Below are positions 1 through 9,062 of a stretch of 16,554 nucleotides of DNA, piece by piece (within the stretch, counting starts at the first letter, position 1; each line of letters starts with the position of its first letter). The translations under genes and the position numbers were made by a program. The stretch is from Nitrospirota bacterium (GTDB taxonomy: Bacteria > Nitrospirota > UBA9217): NCBI GenBank assembly GCA_963749655.1, contig CAVVOB010000010.1:1-16554 (forward strand). The letters run 5' to 3'. Under the pieces are notes generated by a model, which was not told the origin of the DNA, made no database searches, and worked only from the letters and a program-made list of their open reading frames with translations.

Positions 1-24
1 GTGGCCTCGACTCAGCGTATTGCT
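1..24 (+). other. Probable Oxford Nanopore ligation-adapter remnant (technical sequence)
   Basis: 12-24 TCAG-CGTATTGCT matches the recalled ONT adapter end ...TTCAGTTACGTATTGCT, with 9 nt exact. It stops where PNPase homology starts (acg ggc cgc gtg = TGRV). The translated VASTQRIA does not resemble the expected PNPase ...PP(F/Y)xxGE. Confidence 0.7.
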
Positions 25-996
25 ACGGGCCGCGTGGGCACCCCCAAGCGCCGCGAGATCGGCCACGGGCGCCTCGCCAAGCGCGCGCTCCTCGCCGTGC
101 TGCCGTCGAAGGAGGAGTTCGGCTACACGCTGCGCGTCGTCTCCGAGATCACGGAATCGAACGGCTCGTCGTCGATGGCTTCGGTTTGCGGCGGCTGCCT
201 CTCGCTCATGGATGCCGGGGTTCCCCTCAAGGGCCACGTGGCCGGGATCGCGATGGGCCTCATCAAGGAGGGCACGCGCTTCGCGGTGCTCACCGACATC
301 CTCGGCGACGAGGACCACCTGGGCGACATGGACTTCAAGGTGGCCGGCACCGATCGCGGCGTCACGGCGCTGCAGATGGACATCAAGATCAACGGCATCA
401 CCAAGGAGATCATGAAGGTCGCGCTCGACCAGGCGAAGGAAGGGCGCATGCACATCCTCGGCATCATGAAGCAGGCGGTGCCCGGCCCGCGCGAGGATCT
501 GTCGAGCTACGCGCCGCGCGTCATGAAGATGAAGATCAACCCGGACAAGATCCGCGAGGTGATCGGCAAGGGCGGCAGCGTCATCCAGGCGCTCACGCGC
601 GAGACCGGCACCACGATCGACATCGAGGACGACGGCACCATCTCCGTCGCCTGCCTCTCGCAGGAAGCGGGACAGGCGGCGATGGACCGCATCCGCCAGA
701 TCACGGCGGAGGTGGAGGTGGGCAAGGTGTACGAGGGGCCGGTGCTGCGGCTCCTCGACTTCGGCGCGATCGTGCAGCTGCTGCCGGGCAAGGACGGCCT
801 GCTCCACATCTCGCAGATCGCCCACGAGCGTGTGAACGCCGTCTCCGACTACCTCAAGGAAGGCCAGGTGGTGAAGGTCAAGGTGCTCGAGGCCGACGAC
901 AAGGGCCGCGTGAGACTCTCGCGCAAGGCGCTGCTCGAGCCGCCGAAGAAGGAGGAATCGCCCCCGTCGGCTCCCGCCGAGTCGGCGCAGCACTGA
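25..996 (+). CDS. pnp: Polyribonucleotide nucleotidyltransferase (PNPase), 5'-truncated
   Basis: [28 protein letters not shown] and [20 protein letters not shown] (second RNase PH domain), KH domain (IREVIGKGG) and S1 domain ([21 protein letters not shown]). TGA at 994-996. Third codon positions are almost all G/C. Confidence 0.98.
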
Positions 997-1034
997 GGGC
1001 GGCGATATAATCCCCGTTCGCGTTGATGCGCGAC

Positions 1035-3764
1035 AAAGGGAGTGACGGTATAGCTCAGCGCGCCCTGCGCATTGAACACCTTGACCACGCCAGCCGATTT
1101 CCCTTTGGTTCTTTCCTTACCCGATTCGCCTCCGACACCGGCGATGATATCAGCGATGCCGTCTCCGTCGAGATCCGCTGCAGCCAGACTGGAGCCGTAT
1201 TTCGCGTTGCTGAAGGCCGTAATGGAACTCAGGAGCTGCCCGTCTTCCGCCCTTATGATGCTGATGGAAGCGCCCTGACGATCGTATCCAGCACTGGCTA
1301 TGATCTCGTCTTTTCCGTCGTCGTTAACATCTCCCGCTGCCACCGAGGCGCCGCCCTTACCCGACAGCGTGATGTCCCTTATCGCAGCTGCAGTCCAGCT
1401 GCCCAGGCCCTTCGAGGTGTCGATCTTCCAGATGGTTACGACAGCCGGGTTGTCTTCGTCGAATCCCGTGGCAGTGAGCAGCTCGGGTTTCTGGTCTCCC
1501 TCGGTGTCGCCGGCAGCCACATTCGCGCCGAACATCGAGGCGGATGCCGTGATATCAACTCCCGTGGGAACCATCTTGTTTGAAGTCTGGTCATAAGCAT
1601 AAATCCTGACCATTGCGGGATTCTGCGCTCCGCCGGCCGGAGCGACGATCACTTCCGCCTTTCCGTCCCCATCGAAGTCCGCAACCGCCACGTTTACTCC
1701 ATATTGTGTATTGAAAGGAGTAAATTCCAGCAGCTTGCTCTTGTCCGCGCGGTAGATGCGCACCAGGGCGCTGTTGTCCTCGCCCGCGCCGGCTCCGACG
1801 ATCAGTTCAGCGACCCCGTCGCCGTCGACATCGCCGACTGCGGAGTTTGCTCCGTACCGGCTCTTTAAAGCCGTGAATTCGAAGGCCGTTGCATTGCCGT
1901 CGTTCTTGTAGGCCTTTACCCGGGCCGTATTATTCGAAGCAGGGCCCTTGGCGACCACGATGTTTCTCCTGGCGGCGATGTCTTTATAGGAAACATAAAC
2001 GCCGTCGAAGGTTATCTCACCGCCTTCGGAAAGTTTCTTCGTCTGAGGCAGCGGCCGCTGATATCCTGCCACGCGATTGAAGGTGATGGTGTAGTCCCCG
2101 GTGCCTGCGCTGTCCGTGCTCCAGGTCGAACCGCTGCCCGAATAGGCCGTCGTGCCGCCGGAAGAGATCGAGTAGCTTGCATTGGCTATGTTGGCTTTGA
2201 CATTGATCTTGTTGGTGCTGCTGACGGTCAGATCGACCCTGATCTTGGAAGTCCCGTCCCCGCCCAAAGCCCCTGTGGCTACAAAAGCAAGGTATCCGGT
2301 GTACGTTCCCGGAGCAAGACTATCGGCATTCACGGAGATAAGTGAAGAGGTTGTCGCGTTGCCCGAAGAAGGCGCCATGCTGAGCCAGCTCGATGAGGCT
2401 GCGTCGGTTGCAGCTGTCCAGGGAAGCGATGTCGCATTCGAGACACTGACGGTTACGGACTGGGGGGAAACGACCGTCCCCTTCTTTGCCGAGAAGGTCA
2501 GCCACTGGTTGCTCAGACCGAGGGTCGGAGGATCCTGCACCGTAAGCGTGACCGGAACTGAATCGGTCTGCCCGGAATCCGCTGTAACCGTGATAGTGCC
2601 GGTAAATGTACCTGCCGACAGGGGAGCGATGTTCACACTGACAGGAAGGTTTGCTGAAGCAGCCGGGCCGGTGGAACCAGTGGTCTGGCCCGGAATGAGC
2701 CATGCCTGGTTGGACGCTGCGGACCAGCCCAGAGTGCCGCTGCCGCTGTTTGCAACCGTAATCGACTGCGCTGCCGGGTTGGCGCCGTACTTGGTGCCGG
2801 AAAAGCTCAACAGCGACGGTGCGGAATCCATGGTAACAAAACCGTCCAGTGCGTACAGATCGATGCTTTTGCCCACATAGGAGGCCACATAAACGATGTT
2901 GTTTTTTCCGATCGCCACACCCTGGGGCTGCAACAGGGCATGGCTGCTGTCATACAGCGCCGCGGACGCGTCCGTGGACAGGCCGCTTGAAGGATCGAAC
3001 AGCTGAACAACTCCCATGTTGGAATCGGCAATATAGAGCATTCCGCTCTTGTCGAGAGAGAATCCGGAGGGGGCGATCATTTTACCTGCATCGCCGCCGT
3101 ACTCGCCGAAGGAGCGGAGGTACTTACCGGTCTTGTCGAAAACCTGGACCCTCGGGACGTAGGTTTGTGCGCCCGTTGAAGTTGCCGTGATCGGCCGGTC
3201 AGAAACATAAATTTCACCGGCGCTGTCTTTTACCGCGATTGCGACCGGTTTGTTGAGAAGTCCGCTGTCGCTGCCGGTCCCGCCAAAGGACAGAGCGGAC
3301 TGACCAGCGGAATCGAAGACCTTGACCGTATTATCGATCCCGTCAACGATATAAACCCTGTCGGCGCCGTCTATAGCAATAGAAAGGGGCTTGGAAAACT
3401 CGCCCAGGCCTTTGCCCAGACTGCGCACGAACGCCAGGTCTTTGCTGTAGACCGAGACAATGCCCTTGCTCTGGCCGCTGGAGGACCCGACGTACACGCG
3501 GTTCCCGGAATCAACGGCCACGCTGAGCGCGCCCGGCACTGAAAGAGACTTCAGGAGCTGGTCCTTACTGTTGAATACGAGGACCATACCGCGGGAGTAA
3601 TCCGCAACATAGAGGTTCCCCTGGGAGTCAAGAGAGACGCCCACCGGCCCCTGGATATTGTCCGTTACGGACCTAAGCCGCGCAGGAGCTGCATTCGCAA
3701 CGCCCGCCGCCATACCCACCAGGACCAGAATCGCAATGATTGCTGTACACAGTCGCTGCCTCAT
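1035..3764 (-). CDS. Large secreted protein: signal peptide, six NHL repeats, two BACON-like Ig domains, small beta domain, FG-GAP/VCBS-like repeats. 3' end truncated at the junction
   Basis: ATG at 3764 follows SD GGAGGTG and opens a signal peptide (MRQR...ANA|A). Six NHL-type blades, e.g. KPLSIAIDGADRVYIVD. BACON-like segments (NSGSGTLGWSAASNQAWL...GTFTGTITV). Five DxD/NxDG-type loops: GDVDGDG, ADFDGDG, GDTEGDQ, GDVNDDG, ADLDGDG. After YTVTPF the frame runs into antisense pnp. Confidence 0.85.
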
Positions 3765-3852
3765 ACTCACCTCCGAACCCCACGGATTCGCGCTCGTCGT
3801 TATTGGCTTCATAAATTGATTAGCTCCCCTTTGCTCTTTCTCAGCAGCCTTT

Positions 3853-4611
3853 CTATTTATCATGGCAAGTCATGCACATTGCGCTGTTGGCATTCGACAT
3901 TCTGAGGAACGGCGGATTAGTCGTATCATGCGGATCATGGCAGGTAGCGCACTCCATCCTGTCATTGACGCCGTCAAGCTTGAACAGCTTTACGGTGTTT
4001 GGGGGCCAGGTATTCGGCTCCTTGATGCCCCGCAGACCGGGCACCCAGGTAAATGAAACAGGATGGTCATTGCTGAGGTCCACTATACCGCTTGCCGGAG
4101 CACCCCAGTTGTAGCCGATGTTCGCGCCCTCGCCGCCAAGAAATGAAGGGAAGACATCGCCGATCTGATCTCTATTACTGAGCCCCGCGTAAGCGGTCCC
4201 GCCTCCCGGAGCGTTGATGATGTTTTGAATGGTCGTGACGCCGTCGTGGCAGCTCATGCACATAAGCGTGATCCCCTTGGGCGTCGGATCTATAGAGATC
4301 GCCGTCGACAGGGTCGGGCTGGAATATACTTTGTAATTGTAGGTAGAATTTGTTCTGTTCCAAAGGAAAGTATTTGTCAGGCGGCCTGAATCGCTCGAGG
4401 CGCGATGAGGAGTGTGGCAGAAAACGCAAACGTCGGTGATTTCCATGCCCGAATTCGTCGAATAGAAGTTGTCATTAAATTGTGTTATCGGGTTCGCCTG
4501 GAACCATGAAAAATCATGCTTACTTTCCCTGACTCCGGCGCTTGCATAACTCGCGATGAGCATTAGCATGCTAACTGCCATGCAGAGTATTGGCATAATT
4601 TTTCTTGTCAT
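3853..4611 (-). CDS. Secreted tetraheme c-type cytochrome, OmcE-like
   Basis: Sec signal ending ASA|G. Four CxxCH motifs (CVFCH, CMSCH, CATCH, CMTCH) and four extra His (SKHDF, CHTPH, NDHPV, CHDPH). Motif order KHD..CVFCHTPH..LWNR..CMSCHDG..ANxG..DLSNDHPVxF..ECxxCHxxH..PFLR..CxxCH matches G. sulfurreducens OmcE as recalled. SD GGAG upstream. Confidence 0.9.
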   Translation of the reverse strand: MTRKIMPILCMAVSMLMLIASYASAGVRESKHDFSWFQANPITQFNDNFYSTNSGMEITDVCVFCHTPHRASSDSGRLTNTFLWNRTNSTYNYKVYSSPTLSTAISIDPTPKGITLMCMSCHDGVTTIQNIINAPGGGTAYAGLSNRDQIGDVFPSFLGGEGANIGYNWGAPASGIVDLSNDHPVSFTWVPGLRGIKEPNTWPPNTVKLFKLDGVNDRMECATCHDPHDTTNPPFLRMSNANSAMCMTCHDK

Positions 4612-5182
4612 TTGGCTCTCCAGTGTAAATTTAGTAAAATCATACAGTTACAAGTAATACCTCTGTATCGAAACAATGGTCGTAGAAAATTCGACATATA
4701 TAATGCAATGAACATACCAATATTATTTATATTATTTTTTCAATGTGTTATTATTTTTAATACGGTCGAATTAATCAATAAAACACGCTCCATAGCGCGT
4801 TATCGCTCATGCAACTGTTGGGTTACAATCAAAGCACAAAACAAAAACTTACTTACGATTAGTAAAATAATTAGTTATTATTTAACAAACACATAACCTA
4901 TTTTTGAAAGCACCAAATCATTATTTTACGGTTAAGCCTGTTCGAATCTTTGATTACACTGACAGCGCAGGTTAGTCGTGAACATTCATCGCAGAAATCA
5001 TGGCAATGACGTCGAAGAAGACTCATAATATGCATGTCCGAATAAGAACGCTTCTGAAATGTTCCAATGTCGCCGCTTCATGCATCTTGCTGTGCCATTA
5101 GTACTTGTCTGATCACGACTAAGCCGTCTAACCCTTGCTTTATTCGCTGATTTCAATAGGCGAATTTACAGAGGATCATTCA
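4612..5182. promoter_or_regulatory. Long, largely AT-rich intergenic region upstream of the cytochrome unit
   Basis: Strongly AT-rich over 4612-4930, with no credible CDS. A 10-bp inverted repeat lies at 4972-4981 (TTAGTCGTGA) and 5113-5122 (TCACGACTAA). Confidence 0.55.
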
Positions 5183-5482
5183 TTACAATTTCAGGACAAC
5201 TTTGAAAAACCGGTTCATGATGAGCCCCGCAGCAGCGCCGAGCATGGCGCCGAACCCGGCCAGAAAAGACATGACAAAGACAAGAACGAGCATCACGGCA
5301 AAGGAGTTCTGTCCACAGCCGGGTCCGAACATCCTGGTGACGTCCTTTGCCGCTGCATCGCGCCAGGTGCCCTGGAACGTGTCGGAGAAGAACAGGTCCA
5401 TGGACAATGCGATCCCCAATGTTATGACAGCGCCTGCAACCGCGCCGATGATGACCGCTTTTTTGAGTCCCTTGTCGCTCAT
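5183..5482 (-). CDS. Small hypothetical membrane protein (two predicted TM helices)
   Basis: 99 aa with hydrophobic segments AVIIGAVAGAVITLGIAL and FAVMLVLVFVMSFLAGFGAMLGAAAGLI. Purine-rich GGAAAGAG lies before the ATG. Codon usage fits neighbouring genes. Confidence 0.8.
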   Translation of the reverse strand: MSDKGLKKAVIIGAVAGAVITLGIALSMDLFFSDTFQGTWRDAAAKDVTRMFGPGCGQNSFAVMLVLVFVMSFLAGFGAMLGAAAGLIMNRFFKVVLKL

Positions 5483-5622
5483 GCTCTTTCCACGATCAAT
5501 GCCCGAACCAGAAAAATCAGGATAGTATTAGATTTTTTTAGAATGATGATCCCGCAAGGAACCTCGGATCATACAAAACAGCACCCGATGTTTTACGATT
5601 AATCTGTGTACGTACAGGGAAA

Positions 5623-7194: not shown

Positions 7195-8157
7195 TTACGA
7201 ATCCTCAGCCACCTGGCCCCATTTCAGATGGGCCTTCATGAAATAGGGCAGACCGACTCCCAGGTTGAACAGGAATATGACCCCGACATAGGCAAAAGAA
7301 AGAGCGAGGGCATGCTCCTTGGAAAGCCCAAAGGGAGAAAGGGCGAGCCAGAACGCCACCTGGATAACGCCCAACGCACCCGGCGTCGAAGGGATCAAGA
7401 AACCCAGATTGGTAAAAAGAAAGAGAATGAGCGCTGCCTGGTATTTCAGGGTTGCTCCTGAATCGTGAATAAGCGCAAAGATGGAGCAATAATTACAGAT
7501 CCATACGAGCATTGTCGTGCCGAGAATCGACAGAAGATTCCGGGGCTCGCGCAGTTGCTGCAAGGGAGCAAGGAAGTGCACTATCATTTCCAGCAGCCGT
7601 TCAGGAACGATGGTAAGACGATGTTTGTTCCGCTCCAACCGTTCCAGGTTCAGGACCAGAAGGGTCGTCAGGACGATACAGATCACCCAGGCGACCAGGA
7701 CGAGCTCCGCTGTGCCGAAGGTCAGGCCGCGGATCCCGAAATAAATGCACAGAATCAGCAGAAGCCCCAGGGAAAAAACATCGAAGACCCGTTCGATAAA
7801 TATCGTCGACAAGGCAGAAGATCTTCGGACCCCGGTCATGGATGAAAGATACTGGGCGCGGAACAGTTCTCCTGCGCGGAACGGCAGGAGCGTGTTGACC
7901 ATGTACCCGACAACCACTCCGCCGAACAGCGTGGATACGGGAATGCGCCTGAGCTTCTTCGTGGTGATACGCCACGTCAGGGACCTGGCAAGATCGCTGA
8001 GGCACATGAAGAGCATGCAGAACAGAAGCGAGGCGGCGCTGATGTTTTTAAATGACTGCAGGACCGCGCTGAAGTCGACCTTGTAAAACGAAATGGTCAG
8101 CAAGGCGAGGCTGAGACCCATCCCGGTGGTTATGCCGAGTATTTTTTTCATTTTCAT
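7195..8157 (-). CDS. Lysylphosphatidylglycerol synthase TM-region / flippase-like membrane protein (UPF0104-like)
   Basis: Multi-TM protein with GYMVNTLLPFRAGELFR, STIFIERVFD and IPSTPGALGV. The start is placed at MKMKK (8157), which follows GAGG. Confidence 0.9.
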   Translation of the reverse strand: MKMKKILGITTGMGLSLALLTISFYKVDFSAVLQSFKNISAASLLFCMLFMCLSDLARSLTWRITTKKLRRIPVSTLFGGVVVGYMVNTLLPFRAGELFRAQYLSSMTGVRRSSALSTIFIERVFDVFSLGLLLILCIYFGIRGLTFGTAELVLVAWVICIVLTTLLVLNLERLERNKHRLTIVPERLLEMIVHFLAPLQQLREPRNLLSILGTTMLVWICNYCSIFALIHDSGATLKYQAALILFLFTNLGFLIPSTPGALGVIQVAFWLALSPFGLSKEHALALSFAYVGVIFLFNLGVGLPYFMKAHLKWGQVAEDS

Positions 8158-8319
8158 TGCCACATCCTCATGCCGCGATATACGCAGGAATCCTCTGTAC
8201 ATGCGGCCTGATAATGAAGAAGCCGCAGAGGTGCAGGATTTGGAAGATACTGTCATGCTATACTCGATTGCTTGCTGCTTTTCCCCGGCCACCGGCCCCA
8301 GGCCCCCCGGGCCCCTTCT

Positions 8320-9000
8320 TTATCCAGCTCCGGCTCTGTCCGTGTCCCTGAAGAGCACATAAGATACCAGCAGCGCAGTCAGGTAGACGACTCCGGCGGA
8401 CCACAGCACATCGCTCGGGAAGTGCCCCCCCTGGATCATTCGCGCCAGCCCCATGAGCGCACCGTAGGCAAGACCGAGCGCGAGGCAGACCAGCGCCCGC
8501 CGCGCGGAAGAGCGGCGCAGGACAAAATAAGGAGCAACGAGATAAAACGCGATAGCGGCATGTCCCGAAGGGAAGGACTTTCCCTTGCCCGGAATGCCTG
8601 TCTGCCATACCTGCAGATACTTTTGGTCCCCTCCCAGGGACTCCACCTGCCGCGGACGGGGACGGCCCCAACTGTCCTTGAGCGCGCTGGTCACCAGACC
8701 CGGCCCCAACGCGAGGAGAAGGATGAAGAAAAGGGCGCCTTTCCGATAGAGTGCGGCACGCTTCCAGACAAAACCGGCAAGAAGCACGGCTGAAGCCAGG
8801 GCTCCCAGCGCCAAACCCGGCACCATGCCGTACTTGTAGAGCGCCTGCCAGGGGCCGTCGTTCCCATGGACCCATCCCAGGCCGGGCTGGTAGAACAAAC
8901 GCTCGATCCTCATGTCGGTATCGGTAACTGCGAAAAGAACAGTAGCCGACACCAGCAGGAGCACGGGGATGAGGAAGTCAAACAGTATGCGTTTATTCAT
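8320..9000 (-). CDS. PAP2-family membrane phosphatase
   Basis: The three PAP2 motifs are present: KDSWGRPRP, SFPSGH and ARMIQGGHFPSD. The start could be 9000 or 9027. Confidence 0.92.
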   Translation of the reverse strand: MNKRILFDFLIPVLLLVSATVLFAVTDTDMRIERLFYQPGLGWVHGNDGPWQALYKYGMVPGLALGALASAVLLAGFVWKRAALYRKGALFFILLLALGPGLVTSALKDSWGRPRPRQVESLGGDQKYLQVWQTGIPGKGKSFPSGHAAIAFYLVAPYFVLRRSSARRALVCLALGLAYGALMGLARMIQGGHFPSDVLWSAGVVYLTALLVSYVLFRDTDRAGAG

Positions 9001-9062
9001 AGGAGTAACTCTCGGGGTACGGCGCATCCACGGCTGATGGAATCGTGATGCATCAAAAAATA

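Follow-up and report, generated by a model that had tools for sequence, protein, structure and literature searches.

Within the window, by which we mean the whole stretch of DNA analysed here (16,554 nucleotides, nt; contig CAVVOB010000010.1 of the Nitrospirota assembly GCA_963749655.1), two adjacent genes on the reverse strand encode a small, probably exported tetrahaem c-type cytochrome, P0001, that very probably belongs to the OmcE family, and a secreted protein with one beta-propeller at each end. Judging from gene order in ten related loci, the P0001 gene is the first of a conserved module in which an OmcE-like cytochrome and a double-propeller protein are followed by a giant multihaem cytochrome, the third gene being cut away here by a chimeric assembly join. 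This module is a lineage-specific variant of the known OmcE-type electron-export cluster. A role in extracellular or envelope electron transfer appears likely, and actual filament formation by P0001, argued by analogy with OmcE, has at best an even chance.

The OmcE-like cytochrome and its double-propeller neighbour

The features of the two genes are as follows, with the evidence for each in brackets.

3853..4611, reverse strand: tetrahaem c-type cytochrome P0001, very probably of the OmcE family, 252 amino acids (aa) (translation, motif counts, homology, fold search)
4537..4611, reverse strand: probable Sec signal peptide of P0001, residues 1-25 (translation inspected; helix 5-20 in the model)
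3765..3852, reverse strand: 88-nt spacer between the module genes, with GGAGGTG closely preceding the start codon of the second one
1007..3764, reverse strand: secreted NHL/BACON/FG-GAP double-propeller protein (Pfam, alignment with 10 relatives, model, fold matches)
2850..3683, reverse strand: N-terminal NHL-type beta-propeller, model residues 28-305 (Pfam, model, fold matches)
1995..2828, reverse strand: middle beta-sandwich of two BACON/Ig-like domains and one more, model residues 313-590 (Pfam BACON_2, model strands)
1035..1967, reverse strand: C-terminal FG-GAP-type beta-propeller, model residues 600-910 (Pfam, model, conserved columns)

Translation of the cytochrome gene confirmed what the initial annotation had counted in this 252-aa protein, namely four CxxCH motifs, starting at residues 62, 118, 221 and 246, and exactly four further histidines. 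Its eight histidines (32, 66, 69, 122, 183, 225, 228 and 250) are thus divided between four within the motifs and four outside them (32, 69, 183 and 228). By inspection, the N-terminus resembles a Sec signal peptide: it begins with basic residues, continues with a hydrophobic core and ends in A-S-A at residue 25, after which the protein would be cleaved, and a conserved S-K-H-D-F-S arm follows directly. Pfam recognised only a C-terminal Paired_CXXCH_1 motif.

Searched with phmmer against all PDB sequences, P0001 matched best the OmcE chain 7tfs_A (E-value, E, of 4e-24; query residues 13-252 on chain residues 12-232) and second 9yuq_N (E 1.6e-20, full length), the third match having an E of only 0.028. 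In the phmmer alignment, all four CxxCH motifs and the histidines of KHD, TPH and NDHP fall on the same residues of OmcE, as does the fourth non-motif histidine, three residues after the third CxxCH; the OmcE-type motif order proposed earlier therefore holds at all eight haem-ligand positions. These positions are also conserved across a wider alignment (A1), which kept 104 of 120 listed sequences after 16 with poorer coverage or an unusual length were removed on visual inspection: H32, H183, H228 and every motif cysteine and histidine are invariant, and conservation reaches at least 90% for H69 and for the S-K-H-D-F-S arm. A word-indexed search retrieved 921 related proteins at E<=1e-5, the best of them 53% identical to P0001, and an exhaustive search of clusters built at 50% identity gave 4293, 2266 and 29 clusters at E<=1e-3, 1e-10 and 1e-30, respectively. 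Because OmcE is matched at E 4e-24 over the full length and because 921 relatives lie at E<=1e-5, the likeness of P0001 to OmcE is, on the strength of these alignments, no chance match.

The predicted fold points the same way. Foldseek comparison of a haem-free AlphaFold2 monomer model of P0001 with the PDB returned three matches at E<=10, of which only 7TFS was significant (E 5.5e-9; template modelling, TM, scores 0.51/0.61; 33% identity). It is the combination of the sequence match, the conserved ligand positions and the fold search that makes membership of the OmcE family so probable, and both the alignment and the structure prediction suggested in the initial annotation ended on OmcE (7TFS, 9YUQ) and not on other families. 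A two-copy prediction of residues 26-252 with four haems, based on alignment A1, gave a score of 0.01 and a mark of 0.42, which counts neither way on binding.

The neighbouring gene lies on the same strand and, as first described, exactly 88 nt after the stop of the cytochrome gene (coordinates and Pfam NHL); no terminator-like site was found in this spacer. Its start is the ATG at nt 3764 behind GGAGGTG, which corresponds to M34 of the mechanical open reading frame (ORF) 849-3863, a frame that misleads at both ends since homology to relatives stops at ~nt 1007. The product comprises 918+ aa in the window and ~930 aa at full length, ~10 C-terminal residues being missing when compared with the stops of 10 relatives. 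The earlier description of a secreted NHL-propeller protein was right as to the NHL repeats and the secretion signal, and fell short as to size and domain content, given these 918+ aa, two BACON domains and an FG-GAP propeller. In the window as in the 10 relatives, the N-terminus is a plain signal peptide with A-x-A and without a lipobox cysteine. Pfam matches along the protein include NHL repeats, two BACON_2, four FG-GAP and five FG-GAP_3, together with a choice-of-anchor D domain below the cut-off and an SGL match on the NHL region of 27.5 bits (cut-off 26.3) in which no single stretch passes.

A model of this protein built from 11 sequences (predicted local distance difference test, pLDDT, 83.3) is all-beta with one propeller per end, and the FG-GAP propeller carries invariant columns of the D-x-D-G-D-G type in the alignment of relatives. 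The NHL propeller matched the NHL domains of TRIM2, TRIM3 and Brat in the PDB (TM to target 0.77-0.87), and further fold matches of the protein were integrin alpha-V and an archaeal S-layer propeller-PKD protein; as far as the model goes, all of these are interaction scaffolds. No haem motifs were found in the propeller protein. Some 35 full-length relatives were present in the protein collection (P0259-P0292, coverage >=90%); those that bear a name are Nitrospirota entries called either 'BACON domain-containing protein' or 'FG-GAP-like repeat-containing protein'.

Gene order and distribution among relatives

In the ten closest loci (L007-L016), an OmcE-like gene is followed in 10/10 cases by a full-length double-propeller homologue (38-46% identity) after a gap of ~100-180 nt, the propeller match being in two pieces in L011 and stopping short of the protein end in L010 and L012. 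ORF clustering over the window and these 10 loci revealed a third conserved gene, which in all ten relatives lies directly after the propeller stop or overlaps it and encodes a giant multihaem cytochrome of 1600 to >2800 aa. Copies of at least 1600 aa contain 27-48 CxxCH and 5-15 CxxxxCH motifs, the longest frame (at least 2806 aa) holding 48 and 15, and Pfam recognised Cytochrome_C7, MtrC/MtrF domain II/IV and GSu_C4xC__C2xCH; the copy in L013 carries ten TIGR01904 domains. With this third gene present in 10/10 relatives, the compact two-gene unit envisaged in the initial annotation had to be abandoned. Beyond it, a second large cytochrome follows in two of the four loci that were extended, and the genes further on vary by locus (PD40/TPR; sulfatases; ResB-like; DsbD_2 with a P-type ATPase). 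Upstream, the kinase, rhodanese, ogg and 99-aa ORF genes are syntenic with the window in most of L007-L016.

The distribution was surveyed in a 401-genome sample of the phylum, at E<=1e-60 for the propeller protein and E<=1e-25 for OmcE-like proteins. The double-propeller protein occurs in 37 genomes (G000 included), among them 16 of the 63 genomes of the host's family and none of the 14 of its genus; an OmcE-like gene occurs in 53 genomes and again in 0/14 of the genus. Comparison of coordinates placed an OmcE-like gene directly upstream and on the same strand in 21 of the 36 other propeller-holding genomes, that is in 16/16 from the host's family and 5/20 from other families (f4, f15, f24), and in one further genome the two genes are divergent. 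The pairing of OmcE-like cytochrome and NHL-propeller protein, which a neighbourhood survey had been expected to probe, is thus kept in the 10/10 closest loci and in these 21 of 36 genomes.

In a tree of 29 tetra- and pentahaem sequences, P0001 and its 10 relatives form one clade (support 98/95), with P0001 sister to the rest. This tree left out L026 and L031 (no CxxCH in the ORF picked) and 13 longer multihaem forms, and the weak partial matches L050-L054 were not included. The cytochrome clade spans several Nitrospirota families and is always paired with the fused NHL/FG-GAP protein, the giant cytochrome accompanying them in the host's family. The module looks old in that family, and looks to have been lost or never assembled in most of the genus.

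Further OmcE-like genes were noticed around these loci. Two genomes with large contigs hold a second one 13-20 kb upstream of the module (G041:C6 389820-390476 and G042:C8 399386-400036), in a cluster that includes a barrel gene, and the matches from other phyla often are 11-haem forms of ~570-650 aa.

Host, contig end and flanking genes

The window is the whole of contig C10 in a 4.27-Mb bin of 39 contigs (86.6% complete, 5.84% contaminated). By its closest sequence relatives, the host is an uncultured member of the Nitrospirota and no Geobacter: all ten best loci for the cytochrome carry Nitrospirota, Nitrospirae, Nitrospiraceae or Nitrospiria titles, and 46 of 47 loci related to the flanking histidine kinase are of Nitrospirota type (61-81% identity), the remaining one being labelled Betaproteobacteria. 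This upholds the non-Geobacter host of the initial annotation and, through the kinase loci, settles on Nitrospirota for a housekeeping flank described there as Nitrospirota- or Desulfobacterota-like. Such a host is nevertheless not new, because OmcE-like tetrahaem genes are already reported to be widespread, with putative nanowire-type homologues in five phyla including Nitrospirota (PMC13712944, 2026); the novelty attached to the host in the initial annotation is reduced accordingly, and the family assignment is not new in itself.

Three features frame the module.

1..996, forward strand: foreign C-terminal half of a polynucleotide phosphorylase (PNPase), outside the module (RNase_PH, RNase_PH_C, KH_1 and S1 in a frame +1 Pfam scan)
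997..1010, no strand: chimeric assembly junction (GC content, protein identity, second PNPase, end of homology at ~nt 1007)
4612..5130, no strand: AT-rich intergenic region upstream of the cytochrome gene (519 nt, GC 0.345)

The contig is chimeric at ~nt 997-1010, where a betaproteobacterial fragment has been joined to Nitrospirota sequence, as GC content, protein identity and a duplicate PNPase all indicate. The GC content of nt 1-996 is 67%, against 54-59% in the next kilobases, and the best relatives of its product are Betaproteobacteria, Burkholderiales and Nitrosomonadales records (74-81% identity; including metagenome-assembled genomes of Betaproteobacteria). The bin's own PNPase lies on C32 and is 61% identical to the product of nt 1-996, with two stops inside the match. 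The tetranucleotide profile raised no flag on this fragment (r 0.747, mean 0.695 for 1-kb pieces). Because of the join at ~nt 1007, the genes downstream of the double-propeller gene are lost here, including the relatives' giant cytochrome gene; the loss at a junction had been foreseen, and only its boundary has to be moved, from 1035 to ~nt 1007, where homology ends. Two sequencing runs with small shares (0.10 and 0.05) are listed, no RNA run being among them. A few near-identical short contig pieces of both module genes were present in one sequencing run (X1), and none of the run contig pieces spans nt 871-1218, so that the join is neither confirmed nor refuted by reads.

At the other side of the module, the AT-rich region holds promoter-like hexamers at 4778-4722 (reverse strand) and a terminator-like hairpin at 4801-4782 (reverse strand) that would close the upstream transcript. 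Rfam gave no match over the whole window at E<=1, so that no riboswitch was detected ahead of the cytochrome gene. The tetranucleotide profile of the module is typical of the genome (r 0.862, mean 0.857 for 3.6-kb pieces). Next to this region lies the 99-aa ORF (5183-5482, reverse strand), which matches no Pfam or NCBIfam family, is overlapped by an opposite-strand ORF (5135-5602, forward strand), is ~80-84% identical across four congeners and stays beside ogg with or without the cytochrome module. Four same-genus genomes keep the kinase, rhodanese, ogg and small ORF at 66-84% identity, and at the site of the module they hold a convergent operon (L151 4089-9002; also L152-L154) in which a 327-aa cytochrome with nine haems and a membrane protein of 271 aa are encoded together with three other genes. 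The window also has an LPG_synthase_TM and a PAP2 phosphatase gene (7195-9027) between its histidine kinase and rhodanese genes; these look like a local insertion, because they went unmatched in the syntenic region of four genomes of the genus. The kinase matches in the congeners L146 and L148 (G011:C19 and G002:C2) have two in-frame TGA each, which may be read-through upstream of the true start.

Elsewhere in the bin, where a crude count gave 35 ORFs with four or more haem motifs, three loci recall parts of the module, those on C24 and C32 having the look of the published omcE type or of the Uet type, both described below. On C24 (130000-135700; L057 5012-10751; L002), an OmcE-like gene frameshifted after its first haem motif occurs with genes for an NHL lipoprotein of 399 aa, a SurA-like peptidyl-prolyl isomerase and a protein of 629 aa without Pfam match. 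The Atlas clusters closest to this last protein are outer-membrane beta-barrels, which, as no more than a lead, makes it a candidate barrel. A homologue of it lies at the edge of locus L008, and one may speculate that the module borrows the C24 candidate barrel in trans. On C32 (92197-95400; L058 8198-11407), a 344-aa NHL propeller is followed by a 697-aa cytochrome with an OmcE-like N-terminal part and ten haem motifs (CxxCH, CxxxCH or CxxxxCH), a T2SSE-type ATPase lying ~4 kb away. On C13 (179011-184833), a stand-alone 1940-aa cytochrome with ~19 haem motifs has neither an OmcE-like nor an NHL gene adjoining it, and over ~400 aa at its N-terminus it shares 40% identity with the giant cytochromes of the relatives.

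Possible roles and comparison with known systems

In the explanation that we favour, which as a whole we hold to be evenly poised between right and wrong, the small cytochrome would first be exported through the Sec pathway and receive its haems, and its copies would then assemble in head-to-tail fashion, giving a wire of the OmcE type with bis-His haems. One histidine, at a guess that of the N-terminal H32 arm, would complete a haem in the subunit next to it, in the manner of OmcE, which polymerises with an interfacial haem ligated by the adjacent subunit's histidine (PMC9473688, PMC12954529, PMC13712944). The haem-free double-propeller protein may serve as an assembly, anchoring or adhesion scaffold, and the giant cytochrome may form the connection between this wire and the cell envelope or a substrate. 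Electrons could flow either way, for the reduction of minerals or partners or for electron uptake.

Several observations weigh against this explanation. P0001 is only ~33% identical to OmcE, the confidence of its haem-free monomer model is modest (pLDDT 67.3), and eight histidines for four haems suit a monomer with all-internal ligands equally well. Since OmcE-like tetrahaem genes are widespread, the call of a likely nanowire in PMC13712944 depends on a large beta-barrel and a beta-propeller lipoprotein nearby, and neither was recognised in the module. In the four relatives examined, no gene beyond the giant cytochrome was recognised as a beta-barrel, though divergent barrels could escape such a search and the window itself is cut off before this point; of 52 loci searched, only one yielded a homologue of the candidate barrel on C24, ~9 kb upstream. 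The third gene is itself not in this assembly, where its only homologue is the stand-alone paralogue on C13. Finally, none of the genus's 14 other genomes yielded the module, and the syntenic site lacks it in 4/4 examined; it is therefore dispensable in close relatives.

Some of these points lend themselves to a different account, to which we give a sizeable though minority share of belief: P0001 would be a non-polymerising tetrahaem carrier, periplasmic or loosely bound to the surface, that passes electrons to or from the giant cytochrome, the latter being the conduit and the propeller protein holding the complex together. One giant chain with 27-48 CxxCH and 5-15 CxxxxCH motifs could alone span long distances, neither a beta-barrel nor a propeller lipoprotein like those in the published omcE cluster is recognised in the module, the histidine count suits fully internal ligation, and the family comprises as many as 4293 clusters (50% identity, E<=1e-3), its members not all being nanowires according to PMC13712944. 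However, the two closest solved relatives of P0001 are both filaments, the PDB searches gave no monomeric structure of the OmcE family, and the S-K-H-D-F-S arm is invariant or nearly so, as would be expected were its role structural. Unlikely in our judgement is a so far undescribed, Nitrospirota-specific composite conduit outside the cell, in which a single-chain cytochrome of 30-60 haems would nucleate, anchor or cap filaments of the OmcE type and the haem-free double-propeller protein would be the platform for assembly or attachment, with no dedicated barrel.

Two further alternatives concern the propeller protein and the origin of the DNA. BACON domains are often linked to glycan binding. 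Together with the SGL/gluconolactonase-like and arylesterase-like Pfam matches on the NHL region, and with homologues some of which are named 'sugar lactone lactonase YvrE' (JGI), this would agree with an extracellular or periplasmic enzyme or binding protein, for which the cytochromes would be redox partners acting on a soluble substrate without electron export. We consider this improbable, as the SGL match barely reaches its cut-off (27.5 versus 26.3 bits), the fold matches are protein-interaction propellers (TRIM NHL, integrin alpha, S-layer protein), and simple soluble-substrate catalysis is hard to square with conserved partners that include a homologue of OmcE and a cytochrome carrying dozens of haems. 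That the module came from another member of the Nitrospirota in the sample, through a second chimeric join at the AT-rich spacer 4612-5130, might be suspected on a contig with one proven join, in a bin with 5.84% contamination and with 0/14 other genomes of the genus holding the module. Such a join is very improbable, because synteny is kept and composition is ordinary: the order of kinase, rhodanese, ogg, small ORF and OmcE-like gene recurs in related genera, and the module composition fits the genome (r 0.862). Moreover, P0001 is sister to all 10 other members of its clade and not nested in another genus.

Should the OmcE-type explanation hold, it would point to long-range electron transfer in uncultured Nitrospirota of soil, sediment and groundwater, and a composite conduit, if real, might serve to take up electrons from minerals or to exchange them with partner cells. 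In either case, the module provides a second, differently built gene context for OmcE homologues, which asks what role propeller partners play, whether a barrel is needed, and whether small polymerising and giant single-chain cytochromes cooperate.

Among known systems, the best match of P0001 in both sequence and fold is G. sulfurreducens OmcE (GSU0618, 7TFS), which resembles it in size (232 versus 252 aa), tetrahaem make-up, signal-peptide-like N-terminus and the order of four CxxCH motifs and four distal histidines. The two are only ~33% identical and differ in the host, here Nitrospirota, and the filaments known for OmcE are predicted for P0001. OmcE of D. soudanensis WTL (DSOUD_2954), whose bundle is 9YUQ (PMC13712944), is the second-best solved relative and shares the haem-ligand positions with P0001. 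The same source describes a minimal omcE cluster in which OmcE is accompanied by a large beta-barrel, two multihaem cytochromes and two beta-propeller lipoproteins. For Geobacter omcE regions it describes a beta-barrel, two propeller lipoproteins and glycosylation genes, and these the gene context of P0001 lacks. Compared with the D. soudanensis cluster, we find one fused NHL/BACON/FG-GAP protein, one giant cytochrome (in the relatives) and no recognised barrel. A propeller gene adjoins the OmcE-like gene as in the published cluster, but its product is a fused non-lipoprotein of ~930 aa in the window and in 10 relatives, and the further multihaem cytochromes of that cluster are matched in the relatives only, by the giant cytochrome (10/10 loci). 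In the portions of the literature that were accessible, we found no description of a module of OmcE-like, NHL-BACON-FG-GAP and giant cytochrome genes, and the homologue lists of PMC13712944 may include members of the clade.

Outer-surface cytochromes of Geobacter, D. ferrophilus and Tenderia have NHL beta-propeller proteins as companions (PMC9070056, PMC5815863, 10.1101/2022.05.06.490989). The statement of the initial annotation that omcE is encoded next to an NHL-repeat gene is matched loosely, by the two propeller lipoproteins in omcE clusters (PMC13712944) and by the NHL gene GSU2505, which adjoins omcS (PMC9070056). As in the module, an NHL propeller gene adjoins an outer-surface cytochrome in the omcS/GSU2505 and D. 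ferrophilus IS5 clusters, where the propellers were proposed to help assemble or stabilise the cytochrome (PMC9070056, PMC5815863); these clusters differ in their cytochrome families (OmcS is hexahaem and unrelated in sequence) and in their single-domain propellers. The Uet cluster of 'Ca. Tenderia electrophaga' and some Gallionella, proposed for electron uptake, comprises the tetrahaem UetA, the peptidyl-prolyl isomerase UetB, the beta-barrel UetC, the NHL proteins UetH/I and the undecahaem UetJ (10.1101/2022.05.06.490989, PMC9900912). Going by these descriptions, the module of the window is without the isomerase, barrel and trihaem genes of Uet, and its large cytochrome, seen in the relatives, has several times more haems; it shares with Uet a tetrahaem cytochrome (extracellular in Uet), NHL propellers and a larger multihaem cytochrome, and the bin's own OmcE-like loci on C24 and C32, compared by description, closely resemble the Uet type.

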